Numbered from the stretch's first letter, positions 10,750 to 26,933 are shown. The stretch: DNA of 64,000 nucleotides from Candidatus Levybacteria bacterium RIFCSPHIGHO2_01_FULL_36_15b (GCA_001782045.1 MFNK01000012.1:21753-85752), one strand, 5' to 3'. Program-made: numbers and translations. The notes: a model not told the origin generated them from the letters alone.

Positions 10750-11174
10750 CTTTTAATTTAACTTATAGTAATATACTCGGCATGGAAAGTGAATATCGTT
10801 ATAGACAAGATACAGAAGCTTTGTTCGATGATGATGAGGTTTATATTGATGACCTTGAAGCATCATTAAAACTTTATCCTGAAACTGAAAGACAATACAA
10901 ACGTGCCCAAAATATTCGTAGGGCTCTTTTTGGTGTTTCTTTACTTACTTTATTCGGAGGTTTGTATGAAGCCCTTATTGCGCAAGCAAACAAAAATAAC
11001 GGGCTAGATTATCTCGGGCACGAACAAAACAGTTGGCTTGCGGTAATTACTGCAGGAGTCCTAATTGCATCTGGGTTAATCATAGATAATATAGCTGTAA
11101 ATCGCATAAGAACTGAGCAATTTGAATTCAAATTAAATGGCTCAAAGGGAAAGTTTACTAAATTAGTTAAATAA
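10746..11174 (+). CDS. Hypothetical membrane protein (2 TM)
   Basis: Overlaps the stop of member D by 4 bp. Two hydrophobic helices. Confidence 0.4.
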   Translation: MTFNLTYSNILGMESEYRYRQDTEALFDDDEVYIDDLEASLKLYPETERQYKRAQNIRRALFGVSLLTLFGGLYEALIAQANKNNGLDYLGHEQNSWLAVITAGVLIASGLIIDNIAVNRIRTEQFEFKLNGSKGKFTKLVK

Positions 11175-20273: not shown

Positions 20274-20443
20274 TTATACTAAAAAGCTCACTTCCAAAGA
20301 AGCGAGCGATTTGTTGCGGGGCTAGGAGTTGCGCCTAGCCTGTGAGATTATGAGCCTCACGTGCACTGTACACTACCCCGCACGTGCGTAATATTATAAC
20401 AGAAATTTGCCTCAATTAGAAGATAATGTTAAAATATCTCAGC

Positions 20444-20517
20444 GCCAGGGTAGCTCAGTCGGTTAGAGCACAGGATTCATATCCCTGAGGTCGTGGGTTC
20501 GATCCCCACCCCTGGTA
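20444..20517 (+). tRNA. tRNA-Met (anticodon CAU)
   Basis: Manual cloverleaf: acceptor GCCAGGG/CCCTGGT, D-arm GCTC-AGTCGGTTA-GAGC, anticodon loop TTCATAT, T-arm GTGGG-TTCGATC-CCCAC, discriminator A. Confidence 0.8.
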
Positions 20518-20531
20518 CTAAAAAAATAGGT

Positions 20532-21134
20532 TTATCCACTGTTGCCATGCATATCTTTATCTATTAATTTCCTCAAATAATCTGATTTTGAAAGATTGAA
20601 ATGTTTGGCCGCACTATCCAAATGCTGCCTTTCTTTGTCGGAAATGAATAAATTGAACCTGTTTCTAAGTCTAAACTGGCGAATATGACGCAGGAATTTC
20701 TCAATTTCGTCAGGTAAAGTAAACTCCGTATATTTTGCTCCGAAAAAATTCGGCTGATCAATTAAGTTACCATAGTTTCTATCCTTAGATAAAACAAGTA
20801 CTGGTTTCTGAGCAGACAACGCAAAAAACGCTTCAAAACCAAGACGAAAACTTGGATAACTCGCTTCTATTACTAGTCCGTCTGCTCTAAGAATCGCTGC
20901 TCTAACTGCTTTGTCGTGAATATAACGATATTCCTTTTCCGAAACACTAAGGTTTAAAATCTGTTTTAGTTTAGGAGTTTTATCTAAATGAGTTTTAACA
21001 ATAGTGGCCTCTACATTTGCACCTTGATCTTGAATTTCTTTTAAAACTTGTAGATAAGTTTCTTTATACTCCCCCATTCCTGTTTTGGAACAAGTGAAAA
21101 ATATTCTCATACGTATATATGTATATTCTATCAA
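20532..21134 (-). CDS. Nucleoside 2-deoxyribosyltransferase-like domain fused to a C-terminal ribbon-helix-helix (CopG/Arc-type) DNA-binding domain
   Basis: The N-terminal part resembles the NDT Rossmann fold (ADGLVIEASYPSFRLGFEAFFALSAQKPVLVL). The C-terminus SDKERQHLDSAAKHFNLSKSDYLRKLI is RHH-like. The true start may be an internal Met. Confidence 0.45.
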   Translation of the reverse strand: MIEYTYIRMRIFFTCSKTGMGEYKETYLQVLKEIQDQGANVEATIVKTHLDKTPKLKQILNLSVSEKEYRYIHDKAVRAAILRADGLVIEASYPSFRLGFEAFFALSAQKPVLVLSKDRNYGNLIDQPNFFGAKYTEFTLPDEIEKFLRHIRQFRLRNRFNLFISDKERQHLDSAAKHFNLSKSDYLRKLIDKDMHGNSG

Positions 21135-21190
21135 AAATTGTCCAGCTTTTATAGTATAAATCCAATTTATCGGTTAGGAGTTATGTATAA

Positions 21191-21565
21191 ATGGGTAAAA
21201 TTGAGGTTAGAGATAGATCAATTCGGGGAAGAATTAAAAGGGATAAGTTTGTGATGCCCCAAGGTTCACTTCGTAAACTTTCTGTTTCTAGAACAAATGT
21301 TTTTGAAGGAGATGTTGTTTTAGGCGAAGCAGATATATTCAATCGCTACGACGACGAAAATGTCAACGTGCGTGTCTGGAGAGGAGAACAAAATGTTTTC
21401 TCAGATGAACCAGCAAAAGAATATAGAAATAAAGTCGTTATTTCTGACAGTGAATTACAAAAGGGAGTAAGACTTCCCTCTCCTTTTGAGTATTTAGAAG
21501 TAAGGAATGCGCGCAAAGGCGCTTTTTCAAGACTCAGAAGAAAATTAAGCAGGAGGAGTCAATAA
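21191..21565 (+). CDS. Hypothetical protein, IEVRDRGI-family paralog 1
   Basis: The N-terminus MGKIEVRDRSIRGRI is shared with 21565..21909 and 24162..24473. Confidence 0.4.
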   Translation: MGKIEVRDRSIRGRIKRDKFVMPQGSLRKLSVSRTNVFEGDVVLGEADIFNRYDDENVNVRVWRGEQNVFSDEPAKEYRNKVVISDSELQKGVRLPSPFEYLEVRNARKGAFSRLRRKLSRRSQ

Positions 21566-21909
21566 TGGGAATCGAATTCAGAGACACTGGAATAATTGGA
21601 CGATTTATTCGAAGGCCGAGAGAAATTACTCAGGATAGTACTTTTTATTTAAAAAGGGCAAATAATCGTTACGATCTTGAAGACGATCAGACCATATTAA
21701 GCCGTAGGTCCACGTATTCATCTTATTCTCTACAGGAAGATGGATCAGTAATAGAAACCGACTATGCTAATGTTTTTCATCTTGTAGATTTACTGGAGTA
21801 TAGCCCTCGTCCATGCCAAGTAGTTGTCTTCCAAAGAACTCTTCCTAAAGAAGAGTTAGCAAGTGGTTATAAAATACCTCACTCTCATTGGAGAATTATC
21901 AAAACATAA
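21565..21909 (+). CDS. Hypothetical protein, IEVRDRGI-family paralog 2
   Basis: N-terminus MGIEFRDTGIIGRFI. ATGA overlap with the upstream gene. Confidence 0.4.
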   Translation: MGIEFRDTGIIGRFIRRPREITQDSTFYLKRANNRYDLEDDQTILSRRSTYSSYSLQEDGSVIETDYANVFHLVDLLEYSPRPCQVVVFQRTLPKEELASGYKIPHSHWRIIKT

Positions 21910-21910
21910 T

Positions 21911-22366
21911 ATGTCAGCTGAGCAAGAGAAATCAAAAAAGCAAGAATCTCAACCTTTAAATCCCTGGCCGTTCTCTATCTTAAAGGATCCTATGATTTAT
22001 CCTATTGAACAACCATATTTTTACCAAGAGTATAGGAATGCGTCTCATACTCAAATTGCATGTTTAGAGGCAAGAGAAGGTTTGGATGTGACAGAAAGTC
22101 TAATTACAGCTGAACGCGATGAAGGGTTACCTTTTTGGCGGATATATCAAATTAAAGCGGTTTCTCATTTTAGAAGGGCGGAAAGATACCTTAAGGAAGC
22201 AAGGAAGTCTGAAGATGTCCAGTCTATTCAGAGATCGATTGATGGCTGGAATAATCAACTTTCACGTGGTCATGCTGAAATTTGGGCGATAATTCAACCA
22301 ACTCGAGACCTCCATTTAACACGAGATCAAATTATGGAAATATTAGATATTGTGCCAAGAGCCTAA
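21911..22366 (+). CDS. Hypothetical protein (start taken at MSAEQEK)
   Basis: The ORF shares a CLEAREG / CLFAREG block with 22417..22899. The upstream extension of the 21863 ORF overlaps the previous gene. Confidence 0.4.
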   Translation: MSAEQEKSKKQESQPLNPWPFSILKDPMIYPIEQPYFYQEYRNASHTQIACLEAREGLDVTESLITAERDEGLPFWRIYQIKAVSHFRRAERYLKEARKSEDVQSIQRSIDGWNNQLSRGHAEIWAIIQPTRDLHLTRDQIMEILDIVPRA

Positions 22367-22416
22367 AATCCGAAAACTCTGATGAAGGAGAATTCACAAA
22401 TTTAATCTAAAATAAA

Positions 22417-22899
22417 ATGTCACCTGAAAGAAAACAAAAAGGAAATGAAAAGAAAAAAACTGTTGATTATGTTGCGATTTTAGATCAGCCAACTTATTAT
22501 GCAACTGGTCTTTTAGACAGTGACTCTCTAGAAGCTCGTATCCCCAATTTTGAAAAAGAGGTGGAAGGAGCAAAATCTGATACTGAAAAAACTTGTCTAT
22601 TTGCTCGAGAAGGAATGGTTGGGAGAATGAGACAACAGTATCTTCAAGCAGCATATAACGAGAAATTAAATTTAAATATGGAACTTGCCTATCAAATATT
22701 GATAACAGGCTATGCAAGAGCTTCTAAAAACTTTTTATACCTTTATAACGCTTATTCGTATGCAGATCCAGAGCGACTAAAAGCGCTTGTCAGAAGCCTC
22801 GAGCTTTACACTAATGCAATTGAAAATGGCTTAGCGGCAGAAACGAATGGAACACTAACATTAGCAAGAGTAGATAAAATACTTGGTCTACAAAAATAG
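22417..22899 (+). CDS. Hypothetical protein, possible paralog of 21911..22366
   Basis: 160-aa ORF with a TCLFAREGM block. Confidence 0.4.
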   Translation: MSPERKQKGNEKKKTVDYVAILDQPTYYATGLLDSDSLEARIPNFEKEVEGAKSDTEKTCLFAREGMVGRMRQQYLQAAYNEKLNLNMELAYQILITGYARASKNFLYLYNAYSYADPERLKALVRSLELYTNAIENGLAAETNGTLTLARVDKILGLQK

Positions 22900-23226
22900 A
22901 TTTACCCACTGTTTCCAGTAAGGATCCTGCTTAATGGCTTTAATTTCATTGTCTTTTGGCAGCAAATCTTCCGGAATAAGCACGTTTTGCTCCCCTTCTT
23001 TTACCCAAAAGAGCTTATTTCTTGCCTCCTTCTCCACAAAATCTTGTTTCTGCGCAAGTGTGTATTCTGCTTTTAGTTTTGCGTTTTTTGCCTTTTCTTG
23101 CTCTAGCTTTCTTTGTGCTTCTTTTACTACGTCCTGCTTGCTCCAAAGATCGAAAATAGAGCCGATAAGGCCGTTAATAACAAGAAGTAAACCCACAACT
23201 GCAATAATATAAGCGGCTTTTTTCAT
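22888..23226 (-). CDS. FtsB/DivIC-like septum formation initiator (single TM + coiled coil)
   Basis: MKKAAYIIAVVGLLLVINGL is a TM helix, followed by a K/E-rich coiled coil. I chose the start at the internal Met because the longer ORF overlaps the recombinase gene. Confidence 0.45.
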   Translation of the reverse strand: MKKAAYIIAVVGLLLVINGLIGSIFDLWSKQDVVKEAQRKLEQEKAKNAKLKAEYTLAQKQDFVEKEARNKLFWVKEGEQNVLIPEDLLPKDNEIKAIKQDPYWKQWVNLFL

Positions 23227-23299
23227 ATTACTATAGTAACATAATTTTAAAATTCCTAGTTGACTAACTGCATTTTTAATGATATTATAGGCCATAACA

Positions 23300-24160
23300 A
23301 TGAAATCGATTACCCTCCGTTCTGCCCTCGAGGAGTTCAAAAATTTTCTTAAAAATAATCAGAAAAGCAACTCTACAATAGTTGCATATGGCAAGGATAT
23401 TGACCAGCTTTTAACCTTTTTAGAAGGTTTGGAAAGAGGAGAAATAAGCCATGTGTTAAAAGAAGACTTAGATTCTTTTTTGGCAAAACTTTCCAAAGAA
23501 GGATATACTCCTAAGTCGGTTTCGCGAAAGATTAACTCAATTAGAACTTTTTATAGATTCCTTAAAGTTTCCGAATACATAGAAGAAGACCCTTCCCTTT
23601 TGGTGGTTCATCCTAAATACGAACTAGCACCACCCAGAATTTTAACTCCAACAGAATACAGAGCTTTGCGTGATGCTGCAAGGGGAGACGGCAGAATGTT
23701 TGCAATAATTGAGCTTTTACTTCAAACAGGAATTAGAATCGGAGAACTTGCCAATTTAAGGTTATCTGATGTTGGAAAAGATACTTTGCACATTTTGCCT
23801 TTTGAAAAACATGAAGAAAGAACAATTGCATTAAATAAAAGGGCACAGGAAGCGTTGCAAAGATATATGACAGTTCGGCCAAAGGTAGAAGACGATCATT
23901 TGTTTGTTACAAAAAGCGGAAAACCATTCTTGATTCGAAATATAAGAACTGCAGTAGAAAGGTATTTTAGACTTGCAGAAATTCAAGCTGCCAAAGTAAA
24001 TGATTTAAGGCACACTTTTGTAGCACACCACTTAAAACACGGTGTATCGTTACAGGTGTTGAGTAAAACACTAGGACACAAAAGACTTTCCACAACGGAG
24101 CGATATCTTCAATACGTGCCCGAACGCGGCAAAGACACCTCAGTACTTACGGAACTTTAA
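23300..24160 (+). CDS. Tyrosine site-specific recombinase, XerC/XerD-like
   Basis: N-terminal SAM-like core-binding domain. Catalytic R...HxxR...Y appears as ARGDGRM, LRHTFVAHHL and RYLQY. 286 aa. Confidence 0.75.
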   Translation: MKSITLRSALEEFKNFLKNNQKSNSTIVAYGKDIDQLLTFLEGLERGEISHVLKEDLDSFLAKLSKEGYTPKSVSRKINSIRTFYRFLKVSEYIEEDPSLLVVHPKYELAPPRILTPTEYRALRDAARGDGRMFAIIELLLQTGIRIGELANLRLSDVGKDTLHILPFEKHEERTIALNKRAQEALQRYMTVRPKVEDDHLFVTKSGKPFLIRNIRTAVERYFRLAEIQAAKVNDLRHTFVAHHLKHGVSLQVLSKTLGHKRLSTTERYLQYVPERGKDTSVLTEL

Positions 24161-24161
24161 T

Positions 24162-24473
24162 ATGACAATAGAAGTTAAAGACAGAGGAATAAAAGGTCTT
24201 TTTACAAAAACCAAATCTTATCAAGTAGGAGAACCCGTAAATATTCCATACAAGCAGATTCTCGATGATGACAGCCTAATTCACGGCAGAGATTTACTTA
24301 CTGAATTACCAAATGGAAGAATAAGCATTGAAAGTATGATTGATTTTCATCCTATTGAATTTATGACTGTTCTGCGTGGAGATGAAAGCTTAGAGGTTCC
24401 AGCAAGAGAGATTGGAAAGTATGATTTGGGATTTAGAGCAGGAAAAAAAGTAGTTTGGAAACCCTCTAAATAG
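24162..24473 (+). CDS. Hypothetical protein, IEVRDRGI-family paralog 3
   Basis: N-terminus MTIEVKDRGIKGLF. It is immediately downstream of the recombinase. Confidence 0.4.
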   Translation: MTIEVKDRGIKGLFTKTKSYQVGEPVNIPYKQILDDDSLIHGRDLLTELPNGRISIESMIDFHPIEFMTVLRGDESLEVPAREIGKYDLGFRAGKKVVWKPSK

Positions 24474-24545
24474 TGCTCCCGCTTGGATTCGAACCAAGGA
24501 CATCTACTTTATAAGAGTAGCGCTCTACCACTGAGCTACAGGAGC
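24474..24545 (-). tRNA. tRNA-Ile (anticodon read as UAU)
   Basis: Manual fold of the reverse complement: GCTCCTG-TA-GCTC-AGTGGTA-GAGC-G-CTACT-CTTATAA-AGTAG-ATGTC-CTTGG-TTCGAAT-CCAAG-CGGGAGC-A. Confidence 0.7.
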
Positions 24546-24560
24546 TTGTAACGTATTTTA

Positions 24561-26933
24561 TCAGAGGCGGGCGCGTTGGGCAATAATTGGCTCGAGTTTA
24601 TTAACCGGCACTCCGTATTTTACTCTAGATAATTCCCTAATTAACTCGGCAACTCTTTTGTTTTCCACTTGCTTTTCCTTGGTCATATCTCTTGTTAAAT
24701 CCATAGAAAATGAAGTTACAGGCTCGTTATTTACAATGGTTTTAACATAGGCGTTATAAACATCTACATTAATTAAATCTGCCTCTGTAAAAGTCGGCTG
24801 AAACTCGTGTTGTAGGTAGCTCGCATCCGTTACCCCTACTCTAAACGCTGCCAAAGTACCAACGTTTCCGAAAATTGCATTTTTAACCTCTTCATCCATT
24901 TGTCCTATAAACTGGTTTGCAACAATTAAATTGAGCCTGTATTTTCGGGCTTCTGACAAAATCTGTGCAAAATCAGGTGTTGCAAAGTTTTGAAACTCAT
25001 CTACATATAAATAAAAGTCTCGTCTTGATTCTTCTGGTATATCCTGCCTGCTCATTGCTGCAACCAAAATCTTAGGAACCAAAACTAAACCTAAGAAGCT
25101 AGCGTTTTCTTCTCCTATTTTTCCTTTGGATAAAGAGACGAGAAGAATTTTACCCTCATCCATTGCCTTTCTAAAATCAAATGCGCTCTTGCTTTGCCCA
25201 ATTATGTTTCTCATCATCTTATTTGTGACAAACCGGCCAAATTTGGAAACAATATAATCTAAGGTTTCTGATTTATGGAAATCGGAAGTCTGTGCAATTT
25301 GGTCTGTCCAATAACGTCTAATAATTGGATCCTGGACTTTAGGAAGCAGCTCCTGAACAAAATTTGAATCAGTAAGAGCACGTACAACTTCTATAAAAGT
25401 GCTTCCCGGCTCGCTCATTACGGTTAACATTGCGTTTCTTATAGCATGCTCAAAACGGGGGCCAATAATTCCGGTTTTATTGGGGTCGTAAAGCTTGTAC
25501 ATGAGCCCTACAATTGAGCTTACAATATAGTGTTTTTCCTGCTCGGTTTGGGCCTCTAACATGTTTAGTCCAAGAGGCATTTCCGTGTCTGATGGATCAA
25601 ATAAAATTACATCTTCTGCCCGCTCCGGCGGAATTAAAGGTAAAAGTTTATCTATTGTGTCGTGGGGATCGATAAAGCAAACCCCTTCCCCATTTCTTAT
25701 GTCCTGCAAAATCATGTCTTTAAGAAATTCGGATTTTCCCGTTCCAGTTTTTCCAATTACATACATATGTCTTCGTCTGTCATCTTTTTGAATATATACA
25801 GGTTTTGCCATACCCCTGTATGTACTCATTCCAAGATAAAGTCCTGTACTTGGAATTTGAACGGGTGCGGGCGCTTTTTTGGCATTAAGCCAGAAAATAT
25901 GAGGCGTTTGTATGGTTTTATTTGGAAAATGATAAACTCCGGCAAGCTCTTCGCTTGTTAAAACCGAAAAGTTTCCGGTTGCCGGGAAGTAGCGATAAAT
26001 AAAATCTGTTATAAAATTTCCTTTTAAAAACTGCTTCTGTTTTGTAAATTCATTAAATGACGCAAACTGATCGAATGCATTTTCCAAATTGTTAAGATGG
26101 GCCTCTGCTGCTTCCTTAGTAGAGGATGAAACAACCAATCTTACTACTGTATAAAAGCCGGGTTTTCCTATTTTTTGCTCAACAGCTTCAAGTTCTTTAG
26201 GGTCTGAAGAATACTTTGCAGTTTCCGGGTTTGATTCTCTTTTTTTAGTATCTGCGATGTGTTTTCTACCCATCTTAGACCATTTTGAATCTGCACCAGA
26301 AATTAAAATTTGAATTGCTGCGCCCTCTCCTTCCCCCATTTTGGCAAGGACAGAAGTTATTGAGGATATTGGATCAACTGCAAATTCTTTATAAACTTTT
26401 AAGGATTTGTAATTACTGTCTTTAAGTTTCAAGGTTTTGAATGCAACGCTACCATTTTCAGAAAATATATTATATTCATTGCCTAAAATGTAGCCTTCCT
26501 TTGAGTATCTCGAATTACCTTCTTCTACGACTCGTATTTCGGCATCCGGGTAAGAAGCGTTAATCTGCTTTTCAACCATGTCTTTATATTTATTAGGTGT
26601 GTATATGAAAAACCGAATGTCGCCAGGCATTCCTACTATTTCAAAAGATATATGAGGTCTGTATTTTAAAAACTGCAGGCGACCGCTTGATTTTATCCCT
26701 GCAAAAGCGCTAAAAAGCTGTTCTGCGGCGTCAATTTTTATTTCGTTGTCTCTTGGAAGCGCAATTTGCAAAAGAGTCGAGTCTAAGGAATGCTTTTCGC
26801 GTTCTCTATTTCTGTACCAAACCATCCAAACATATCCAAGCCCAACCACTACAGCAGCCATTAAGATAAGAATTCCTACTGTAACAAATAGCGATATTAG
26901 TAACTGAGTTAGAGCTGTTAAAGAATTTATCAT
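24561..26933 (-). CDS. VirB4/TrbE/CagE-family type IV secretion ATPase with N-terminal TM segment
   Basis: Walker A VIGKTGTGKSEFLKDM and Walker B LYVDEFQNFAT. 790 aa with an N-terminal hydrophobic helix. Confidence 0.8.
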   Translation of the reverse strand: MINSLTALTQLLISLFVTVGILILMAAVVVGLGYVWMVWYRNREREKHSLDSTLLQIALPRDNEIKIDAAEQLFSAFAGIKSSGRLQFLKYRPHISFEIVGMPGDIRFFIYTPNKYKDMVEKQINASYPDAEIRVVEEGNSRYSKEGYILGNEYNIFSENGSVAFKTLKLKDSNYKSLKVYKEFAVDPISSITSVLAKMGEGEGAAIQILISGADSKWSKMGRKHIADTKKRESNPETAKYSSDPKELEAVEQKIGKPGFYTVVRLVVSSSTKEAAEAHLNNLENAFDQFASFNEFTKQKQFLKGNFITDFIYRYFPATGNFSVLTSEELAGVYHFPNKTIQTPHIFWLNAKKAPAPVQIPSTGLYLGMSTYRGMAKPVYIQKDDRRRHMYVIGKTGTGKSEFLKDMILQDIRNGEGVCFIDPHDTIDKLLPLIPPERAEDVILFDPSDTEMPLGLNMLEAQTEQEKHYIVSSIVGLMYKLYDPNKTGIIGPRFEHAIRNAMLTVMSEPGSTFIEVVRALTDSNFVQELLPKVQDPIIRRYWTDQIAQTSDFHKSETLDYIVSKFGRFVTNKMMRNIIGQSKSAFDFRKAMDEGKILLVSLSKGKIGEENASFLGLVLVPKILVAAMSRQDIPEESRRDFYLYVDEFQNFATPDFAQILSEARKYRLNLIVANQFIGQMDEEVKNAIFGNVGTLAAFRVGVTDASYLQHEFQPTFTEADLINVDVYNAYVKTIVNNEPVTSFSMDLTRDMTKEKQVENKRVAELIRELSRVKYGVPVNKLEPIIAQRARL

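Follow-up and report, generated by a model that had tools for sequence, protein, structure and literature searches.

A tyrosine recombinase gene lying between two tRNA genes, among small genes that relatives lack, raises a simple question: is the interval a mobile island with its own integrase, or core chromosome into which genes have been inserted? The case considered here is the 4.3-kb interval from a tRNA-Met to a tRNA-Ile gene in the groundwater genome of Candidatus Levybacteria bacterium RIFCSPHIGHO2_01_FULL_36_15b (GCA_001782045.1, MFNK01000012.1:21753-85752), a member of the Candidate Phyla Radiation (CPR). The stretch analyzed, 64 kb in length, is called the window, and positions are counted from its first nucleotide; contigs identical over the locus come from groundwater metagenomes. 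A sequence-only reading had found the tRNA flanks and the recombinase compatible with an integrated element, while noting that an FtsB-like neighbor would equally fit a chromosomal Xer context. We conclude that the interval is probably a recombination hot spot around two core genes, ftsB and xer, in which one of two variable slots carries an insertion scarred by a duplicated ftsB end, and not a single island.

A recombinase-based scan yielded 80 related loci, one per species (designated by L-numbers); nearly all of those carrying a lineage label belong to Candidatus Levybacteria/Levyibacteriota or Patescibacteria. Synteny was assessed by tblastn of the window proteins against these loci, and tRNA genes were called with ARAGORN and checked a second time with the Rfam tRNA model. 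Both programs bear out the tRNA flanks. The features that frame the argument are as follows.

20444-20518, plus strand: tRNA-Met(CAU), called by ARAGORN and at 66.6 bits by Rfam; conserved left anchor of slot B.
20518-20547: left copy of a 30-bp direct repeat, reading WQQWINLFF* on the minus strand; displaced ftsB 3' end.
22888-22917: right repeat copy, with which ftsB now ends (WKQWVNLFL*).
22888-23295, minus strand: ftsB/divIC-like septum gene, 135 aa (Pfam DivIC, E 7e-13); core.
23300-24160, plus strand: Xer-type tyrosine recombinase, 286 aa (Phage_integrase, E 1e-28, plus a SAM-like N domain); core.
24473-24545, minus strand: tRNA-Ile(UAU), called by ARAGORN and at 75.2 bits by Rfam; conserved right anchor of slot C.

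Every one of the 80 related species has the divergent, adjacent ftsB-xer pair, its Xer being 68–94% identical, and in nearly all loci the pair stands in the same frame: tgt, murD, a variable segment, ftsB (minus) and xer (plus), a second variable segment and a VirD4-like gene. The tRNA-Met genes and tRNA-Ile(UAU) are likewise retained in most loci. Because the pair is kept in every relative, the window Xer is a core gene and not the integrase of an element. The Xer-like recombinase recognized from sequence is therefore real, and so is its chromosomal setting beside FtsB, whereas its suggested role as the integrase of an islet has to be given up: the gene is core in 80/80 relatives and lies outside the repeat-bounded block.

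Slot B, from tRNA-Met to the ftsB 3' end, was measured in 60 loci and spans 3–8,427 bp (≤60 bp in 10 of them); slot C, from the xer stop codon to tRNA-Ile, was measured in 71 and reaches up to 2,691 bp (≤60 bp in 13). Slot B contains 139 ORFs in 83 clusters, 71 of which are singletons, and slot C 68 ORFs in 49 clusters, including 40 singletons. Both slots hold different, mostly unique genes in each species, and none of the 80 loci has an integrase in either slot. At the empty sites of slot B, tRNA-Met lies 3–58 bp from the ftsB stop codon (10/60 relatives). The window slots hold six cargo genes and one control region.

20532-21110, minus strand: p200, 192 aa, with an N-terminal domain resembling DNPH1 and nucleoside 2-deoxyribosyltransferase (DNPH1/NDT-like) and a C-terminal ribbon-helix-helix (RHH) domain, both from profile and Pfam matches.
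21111-21190, no strand: divergent control region of 80 bp between p200 and the small-gene operon; putative operator.
21191-21565, plus strand: p124, ORFan with N-terminus MGKIEVRDRSIRG; coding score 0.215 per codon, AGGAG ribosome-binding site.
21565-21909, plus strand: p114, ORFan with N-terminus MGIEFRDTGIIG; 0.176 per codon, GGAGGAG ribosome-binding site.
21911-22366, plus strand: p167, a helical 'ACxxAREG' protein, 151 aa from ATG 21911; paralogue of p160.
22417-22899, plus strand: p160, the second 'ACxxAREG' paralogue; 0.249 per codon.
24162-24473, plus strand: p103, ORFan with N-terminus MTIEVKDRGIKG; 0.241 per codon, in slot C.

When compared with the 80 related species, all six genes are confined to contigs of the same species; even L007, with a 94% identical Xer, lacks them. 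p103 occupies precisely the whole of slot C, starting 1 nt past the xer stop codon and ending at tRNA-Ile, and L007 has an unrelated 125-aa ORF in this slot with equally tight borders. Synteny, which the sequence-only reading had put forward as a check, thus divides the interval into cargo absent from relatives and a conserved frame of ftsB-xer and tRNA genes.

The insertion in slot B is marked by the 30-bp repeat, whose copies are identical at 26 of 30 positions. As a background, matches to the terminal 30 nt of ftsB were sought in each of 78 other loci, on either strand of up to 9 kb of upstream sequence; in all but one of these loci the best match was 16–21/30. The left copy begins at the last base of tRNA-Met, at the very position of the ftsB end in the empty-site genomes L011, L012, and L070, and read in the ftsB frame it has the LFF* ending typical of relatives, although its open frame extends for only 12 codons. 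The last five codons of p200 lie inside the left copy and the stop codon of p160 inside the right one, each in a frame other than that of ftsB; since the genes overlapping the two copies use different frames, the similarity exists at the DNA level. The position of the stranded copy and its ftsB reading together identify the 2,370 bp in between as an insertion into the ftsB end. Slot B of this species therefore holds a 2,370-bp insertion without an integrase, which brought or created a replacement ftsB end and left the old last 30 nt stranded at tRNA-Met.

Two further loci carry comparable scars. In L049, an exact 25-nt repeat of the ftsB end surrounds a 970-bp insert with one 296-aa gene, and in L080 a 96-nt repeat of the xer 3' end, ∼85% identical, surrounds a 520-bp insert with one 115-aa gene that starts 2 nt past the xer stop codon; the window itself has no duplicate of the xer end. 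The three scars (window, L049, and L080) differ in length and register and share no recombinase-like site. A 13-nt ftsB-end match in L058 lies within a RadC gene and was dismissed as chance.

How the insertion arose can be proposed only in outline. Incoming DNA with a stretch resembling the ftsB 3' end would have recombined across that stretch, either by a single crossover of a circular intermediate or, with DNA from a related donor, by a crossover anchored in ftsB homology combined with an illegitimate join. We slightly favor homology-anchored recombination on a core gene over a dedicated site-specific integrase, because the block has no recombinase and no dif-like site and the duplicated lengths differ (25, 30, and 96 nt). 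Homology-facilitated illegitimate recombination during natural transformation was reportedly described by de Vries and Wackernagel in 2002. It has in common with our case a one-sided anchor in a conserved gene, added foreign DNA and variable junctions; here the process is deduced from scars only, and no demonstration of it in CPR bacteria is known.

Several observations weigh against a scarred insertion at a hot spot. No integrase or recombinase remnant was found in or near the block (20548-22887), its junctions show no tRNA-derived attachment (att) site, and neither the junctions nor the rest of the locus contain a dif-like palindrome. All 17 contigs of the species carry the block, and among them no empty-site allele or circular junction was seen. 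Sliding ftsB-xer identity against L007 revealed no sharp breakpoint between donor and recipient sequence in ftsB. A clear duplicated anchor occurs in only 2 of ∼60 slot-B loci and in one slot-C locus, which means that most slot turnover leaves no scar. The regulatory role and the ligand of p200 are putative. Finally, GC content is 0.33–0.41 across the region with no deviation, and codon usage, a check suggested in the sequence-only reading, does not deviate either; such host-like composition and codon usage indicate that the insertion is old or came from a close relative.

Among the other explanations, the one that survives best, though we regard it as unlikely, is a decayed integrative element that used the ftsB 3' end as attB through an integrase of its own or supplied in trans, in the manner of a cis-mobilizable element (CIME), and later lost its recombination module. 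Imperfect 30-bp repeats that restore the target gene are what elements integrating in gene 3' ends produce, and the block is compact, with convergent gene ends that a circular form would bring together in one 30-mer. However, an integrase remnant is missing from the block and its surroundings, and 2.37 kb leave no room for a lost integrase unless its deletion was exact. The cargo also has no PHROG family, and p200 has no plasmid counterpart in PLSDB and matches in IMG/VR through its RHH part only.

A second explanation assigns the capture to the core recombinase itself: Xer would insert cassettes devoid of an integrase at the ftsB and xer 3' ends, much as integrative mobile elements exploiting Xer (IMEX) or integrons do. 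Its domains (PF00589, E 1.4e-28; PF02899, E 7e-16) and its length, 286 aa where ∼290 aa is usual, fit the XerC/XerD/XerA type, and its best PDB matches are XerA (5hxy) and XerD (1a0p), at ∼88 bits. It scores below the NCBIfam equivalog cut-offs for XerC, XerD, and XerA (164, 161, and 152 bits vs 330, 335, and 220), so it is Xer-like without being assignable to one of these subfamilies. Of the catalytic set R-K-H-R-H-Y, it retains in alignments to XerD and XerA the residues R (GIRIGEL), R (LRH), H (LGHKRL), and Y (ERY) and has Asn (KVNDLRH) at the position of XerD H244, the first catalytic His; the same Asn occurs in the relatives' Xer that were read (L007, L049, and L080). No second xer copy was found in the window or in related loci. 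The start codons of ftsB and xer are 4 bp apart (23295-23300), and a promoter-like site for xer, TTGACT-17-TATTAT, lies at 23260-23288 inside the ftsB coding region.

Capture by Xer would account for insertion points at either end of an invariant ftsB-xer pair, for three independent scars around inserts without a recombinase, for slot-C cassettes whose starts coincide with the xer stop codon or lie no more than 2 nt from it (window, L007, and L080), and for the inverted tRNA-Met pair and tRNA-Ile of many relatives. Against it, the junctions show no dif-like or other palindromic site and the duplicated stretches vary in register as well as in length, while Xer scores 62 bits against the integron-integrase model, for which the cut-off is 265. 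Conservation of the ftsB 3' DNA is in any case explained by the conserved W..W...FF* peptide. We therefore consider this explanation quite unlikely. The specific claim that the Levybacteria Xer catalyzes capture, swapping, and inversion of integrase-less cassettes at the two gene ends we hold to be decidedly improbable; if true, CPR bacteria would have a cassette system of a new kind, dependent on Xer and different from both integrons and dif-based IMEX.

A history without any insertion, in which genes of a poorly conserved region were lost and gained and the two repeat copies match by chance or as a common regulatory or terminator motif, appears very improbable. Host-like composition and the scar-free state of most filled slots in relatives would agree with it. 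It does not explain why 26/30 positions match when the maximum in control loci is 21/30, or why the left copy is an ftsB C-terminus with LFF* placed exactly at the ftsB end of empty-site genomes, and protein homology cannot stand in as the explanation, since the copies are read in different frames. That the whole 4.3 kb from tRNA-Met to tRNA-Ile is one element with the recombinase at 23300-24160 as its integrase deserves almost no credence, for although tRNA genes on both sides, a tyrosine recombinase within and cargo missing from relatives suggest it, the ftsB-xer pair is adjacent and divergent in every relative (Xer 68–94%), the recombinase is outside the repeat-bounded block, and the window has neither tRNA-fragment repeats nor compositional deviation.

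What remains of the proposed integrated element is thus the cargo, absent in 80 species, and an att-like repeat that flanks part of the interval; a tRNA-to-tRNA islet it is not. Judged as an island, the locus has an att-like 30-bp repeat derived from the ftsB 3' end and ten empty-site genomes, and has no integrase of its own, no tRNA-3'-end repeat at the far border and no deviation in composition or codon usage. The search for repeats of tRNA 3' ends, suggested by the tRNA flanks, came back empty: no tRNA fragment of at least 14 nt recurs elsewhere in the 64-kb window.

The locus can be set beside known systems. The idea that chromosomes have integration hot spots bordered by core genes or tRNAs is said to come from Oliveira et al. 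in 2017. Such hot spots share with our locus the constant core or tRNA flanks, a very high turnover of accessory genes and many inserts without mobility genes; here, by contrast, the lineage belongs to the CPR, two tiny slots of 0–8 kb adjoin precisely the 3' ends of ftsB and of the divergent xer, and three inserts left duplicated gene 3' ends. Elements that integrate into gene 3' ends (tRNA and tmRNA islands) and CIMEs show the same imperfect repeats, replacement end, and displaced original end, but the target here is the protein gene ftsB and not the adjacent tRNA, and there is neither an integrase nor a fixed att core common to the events. IMEX and pdif modules are similar as integrase-less inserts next to or dependent on the host Xer; they differ in that no dif-like junction site is found here and the duplicate is a gene end, not a 28–31-bp Xer site. 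Integron cassettes likewise are single, mostly promoterless ORFs of unknown function gathered at an array position beside a tyrosine recombinase gene, whereas this Xer (286 aa) lacks the additional IntI domain and an IntI-level score (TIGR02249, 62 bits vs 265), and insertion has occurred at a gene 3' end to either side of the recombinase. The three junction regions yielded no short inverted repeats of the kind expected for attC hairpins, with no dedicated attC model run. The block thus resembles CIME-like, att-flanked elements and, more loosely, IMEX or integron cassettes, whose defining features it mostly lacks.

The cargo of the block is a portable, putatively regulatory module composed of the DNPH1/NDT-like–RHH protein p200 and a divergent four-gene operon. 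The fusion of a nucleoside-2-deoxyribosyltransferase-like domain with an RHH domain, noticed from the sequence alone, is real. An earlier 200-aa ORF is shortened to 192 aa by the actual start codon, ATG 21110. The p200 family profile aligns with Rcl/DNPH1 over 107 columns (residues 3–109, E 7e-5), and the Gly-x-Glu catalytic position is kept, with GFE aligned to GYE and nearly invariant in the family. Residues 149–189 match CopG-type RHH proteins in the family profile. Among 22 family members, Pfam assigns a NikA-like RHH to 16 and Nuc_deoxyrib_tr (PF05014) to four; the best NikA-like match has E 1.2e-5 and 25.8 bits against a 27-bit cut-off, and CopG matches have E 0.08–0.3, so the C-terminal RHH assignment appears weak but consistent.

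Homologues of p200, ∼190 aa long and 50–74% identical, form at least 107 clusters in Patescibacteria such as Woesebacteria, and by sequence the DNPH1/NDT-like–RHH regulators are a conserved Microgenomates family. Compared with DNPH1/Rcl enzymes and CopG/NikA-type regulators, p200 joins both domain types in one protein of ∼190 aa, a fusion of which we know of no characterized example. Our literature search likewise found nothing on Xer/dif or islands in CPR bacteria or on DNPH1/NDT–RHH fusions. No full-length p200 relative was detected in IMG/VR viral contigs (RHH part only) or PLSDB plasmids.

The neighbors of p200 homologues vary between loci. In four Woesebacteria-type loci (L090, L106, L108, and L109) the homologue has as its divergent neighbor a Glycos_transf_3 gene from the nucleoside/AMP phosphorylase family, which fits a nucleotide-linked regulator. 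p200 homologues are often found in accessory regions rich in toxin–antitoxin (TA) pairs (PIN/PhdYeFM, ParE, Fic, and HicAB), as in the flanks of L088 and L095, and in L087 (2875-3723) one has a Replic_Relax protein as neighbor and is separated by only 2.4 kb from the tRNA-Met-ftsB-xer set of the same genome. As for a TA role of p200 itself, its RHH domain has only an 18.8-bit VapB-like match, and no toxin family was found in any neighbor. An RHH dimer or tetramer of p200 would presumably bind the 80-bp divergent control region and could repress or tune the small-gene operon and p200 itself, in response to a deoxynucleotide-type ligand at the DNPH1-like domain. The 8-nt TATGTATA occurs at 21118-21125 and 21182-21189, just upstream of the p200 and p124 start codons; the pair may serve as an operator for the RHH domain, or it may reflect chance in DNA that is rich in AT.

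The small genes are likely to be genuine by codon usage: the six cargo ORFs score 0.15–0.25 per codon, like true host genes (0.207 ± 0.083 for true window genes, below 0 for spurious overlapping ORFs), and the start of p114 overlaps the stop of p124. The motif IE[VF][RK]D..I stands at residues 3–4 of exactly three ORFs, those beginning at 21191, 21565, and 24162, and occurs only once more in the six-frame translation of the 64 kb. The three genes encode its conserved residues with differing synonymous codons, so that conservation lies in the peptide. Past ∼16 residues the similarity is not significant (BLASTP E 0.003, 1.8, and none), which leaves the proposed trio of paralogues with a shared N-terminus and no more; its third member, p103, moreover lies in a separate slot beyond ftsB-xer and not in the same islet. 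A profile of the trio, the search suggested for this family, retrieved only the query proteins (p124, p114, and p103) among 5.8e9 clusters. Proteins of 133–144 aa starting 'MISVEV...' beside p200 homologues were considered as relatives of the trio and found no hhalign support.

The two ORFs with a CL(E/F)AREG block, at 21911 and 22417, are true paralogues, p167 and p160 being alignable over their full length (BLASTP E 8e-5, 27–29% identity). Their profile returned only the query proteins in 5.8e9 clusters and 1.84e9 representatives, and local tblastn and hidden Markov model searches place them in a small family with the block (K/I)(A/T)C(I/L)xAREG. Where the closest p200 homologues occur (L092, L095/96, and L088/89/94), other 'ACxxAREG' members are encoded in the operon that diverges from them. 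This co-occurrence makes p200 with a divergent small-protein operon a recurrent module, which is found in differing accessory contexts, e.g. between GIY-YIG genes or where TA pairs abound. The five small ORFs had no match in PHROGs, NCBIfam, or PADLOC. The AlphaFold model of p167 is all helix (pLDDT 65) with no fold match in PDB, and that of p124 is uninformative (pLDDT 33).

Other features of the locus concern its tRNA genes and right flank. One tRNA gene had gone unnoticed in the sequence-only reading.

20313-20382, minus strand: atypical initiator-type tRNA (CAU), 70 nt, called by ARAGORN.

The Rfam tRNA model misses it at E ≤ 1. It has a D-loop of ∼5 nt without GG and a T-loop CGCAACU without TTC, and it ends (U/C)GCGGGG...CCCCGCAA, as is typical for tRNAfMet. 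Related loci contain 42 copies in 19 variants with compensatory changes in the T-stem; the window copy has U1:A72 in place of the C1xA72 mismatch, and a terminator-like hairpin (20307-20286) follows it. The unit of two tRNA-Met genes at 20313-20518 is inverted as a block relative to L007 (8599-8803), and each orientation is frequent across the 80 loci. In ∼11 loci (L017, L018, L026, L039, L046, L050, L066, L070, L078, L083, and L084), the single tRNA-Ile gene has the reverse orientation. These flips of the tRNA-Met unit and of tRNA-Ile are repeated small inversions immediately beside xer. Partial tRNA-Ile duplications adjoin tRNA-Ile in L048, L081, and L083.

tRNA-Ile(UAU) stands beside xer in 71/80 related loci, across Levybacteria, and its conservation would imply AUA decoding without lysidine, which has been described for Mycoplasma mobile (PMC3575796). 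Directly after tRNA-Ile follows a VirD4/TraG/TrwB-like coupling ATPase of 790 aa (DUF8128; 24561-26933, minus strand); as it is conserved at 65–93% identity in most relatives, it is core and not part of a conjugative element. L002 (JGI Ga0209541_10000629) is a mosaic whose breakpoint falls near locus position 11168. Its tgt-to-p103 proteins, encoded before tRNA-Ile, are the same as in the window lineage, and past tRNA-Ile its DNA is 99.99% identical to the L007 lineage. It may be a natural inter-lineage recombinant or, equally, an assembly chimera joined at the shared tRNA.

For genome annotation the locus is a trap, as a tyrosine recombinase flanked by tRNA genes resembles the integrase of an island and is here a core gene. 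The side products of the analysis are the DNPH1-like–RHH family in Microgenomates, its 'ACxxAREG' partner family, and a reduced initiator tRNA, none of which overturns current views. The locus behaves like the integration hot spots known from other bacteria and is a well-delimited case of gene gain in the CPR: a concrete, datable example of how ultra-small genomes acquire ORFans, in two precise slots and with scars at gene ends.

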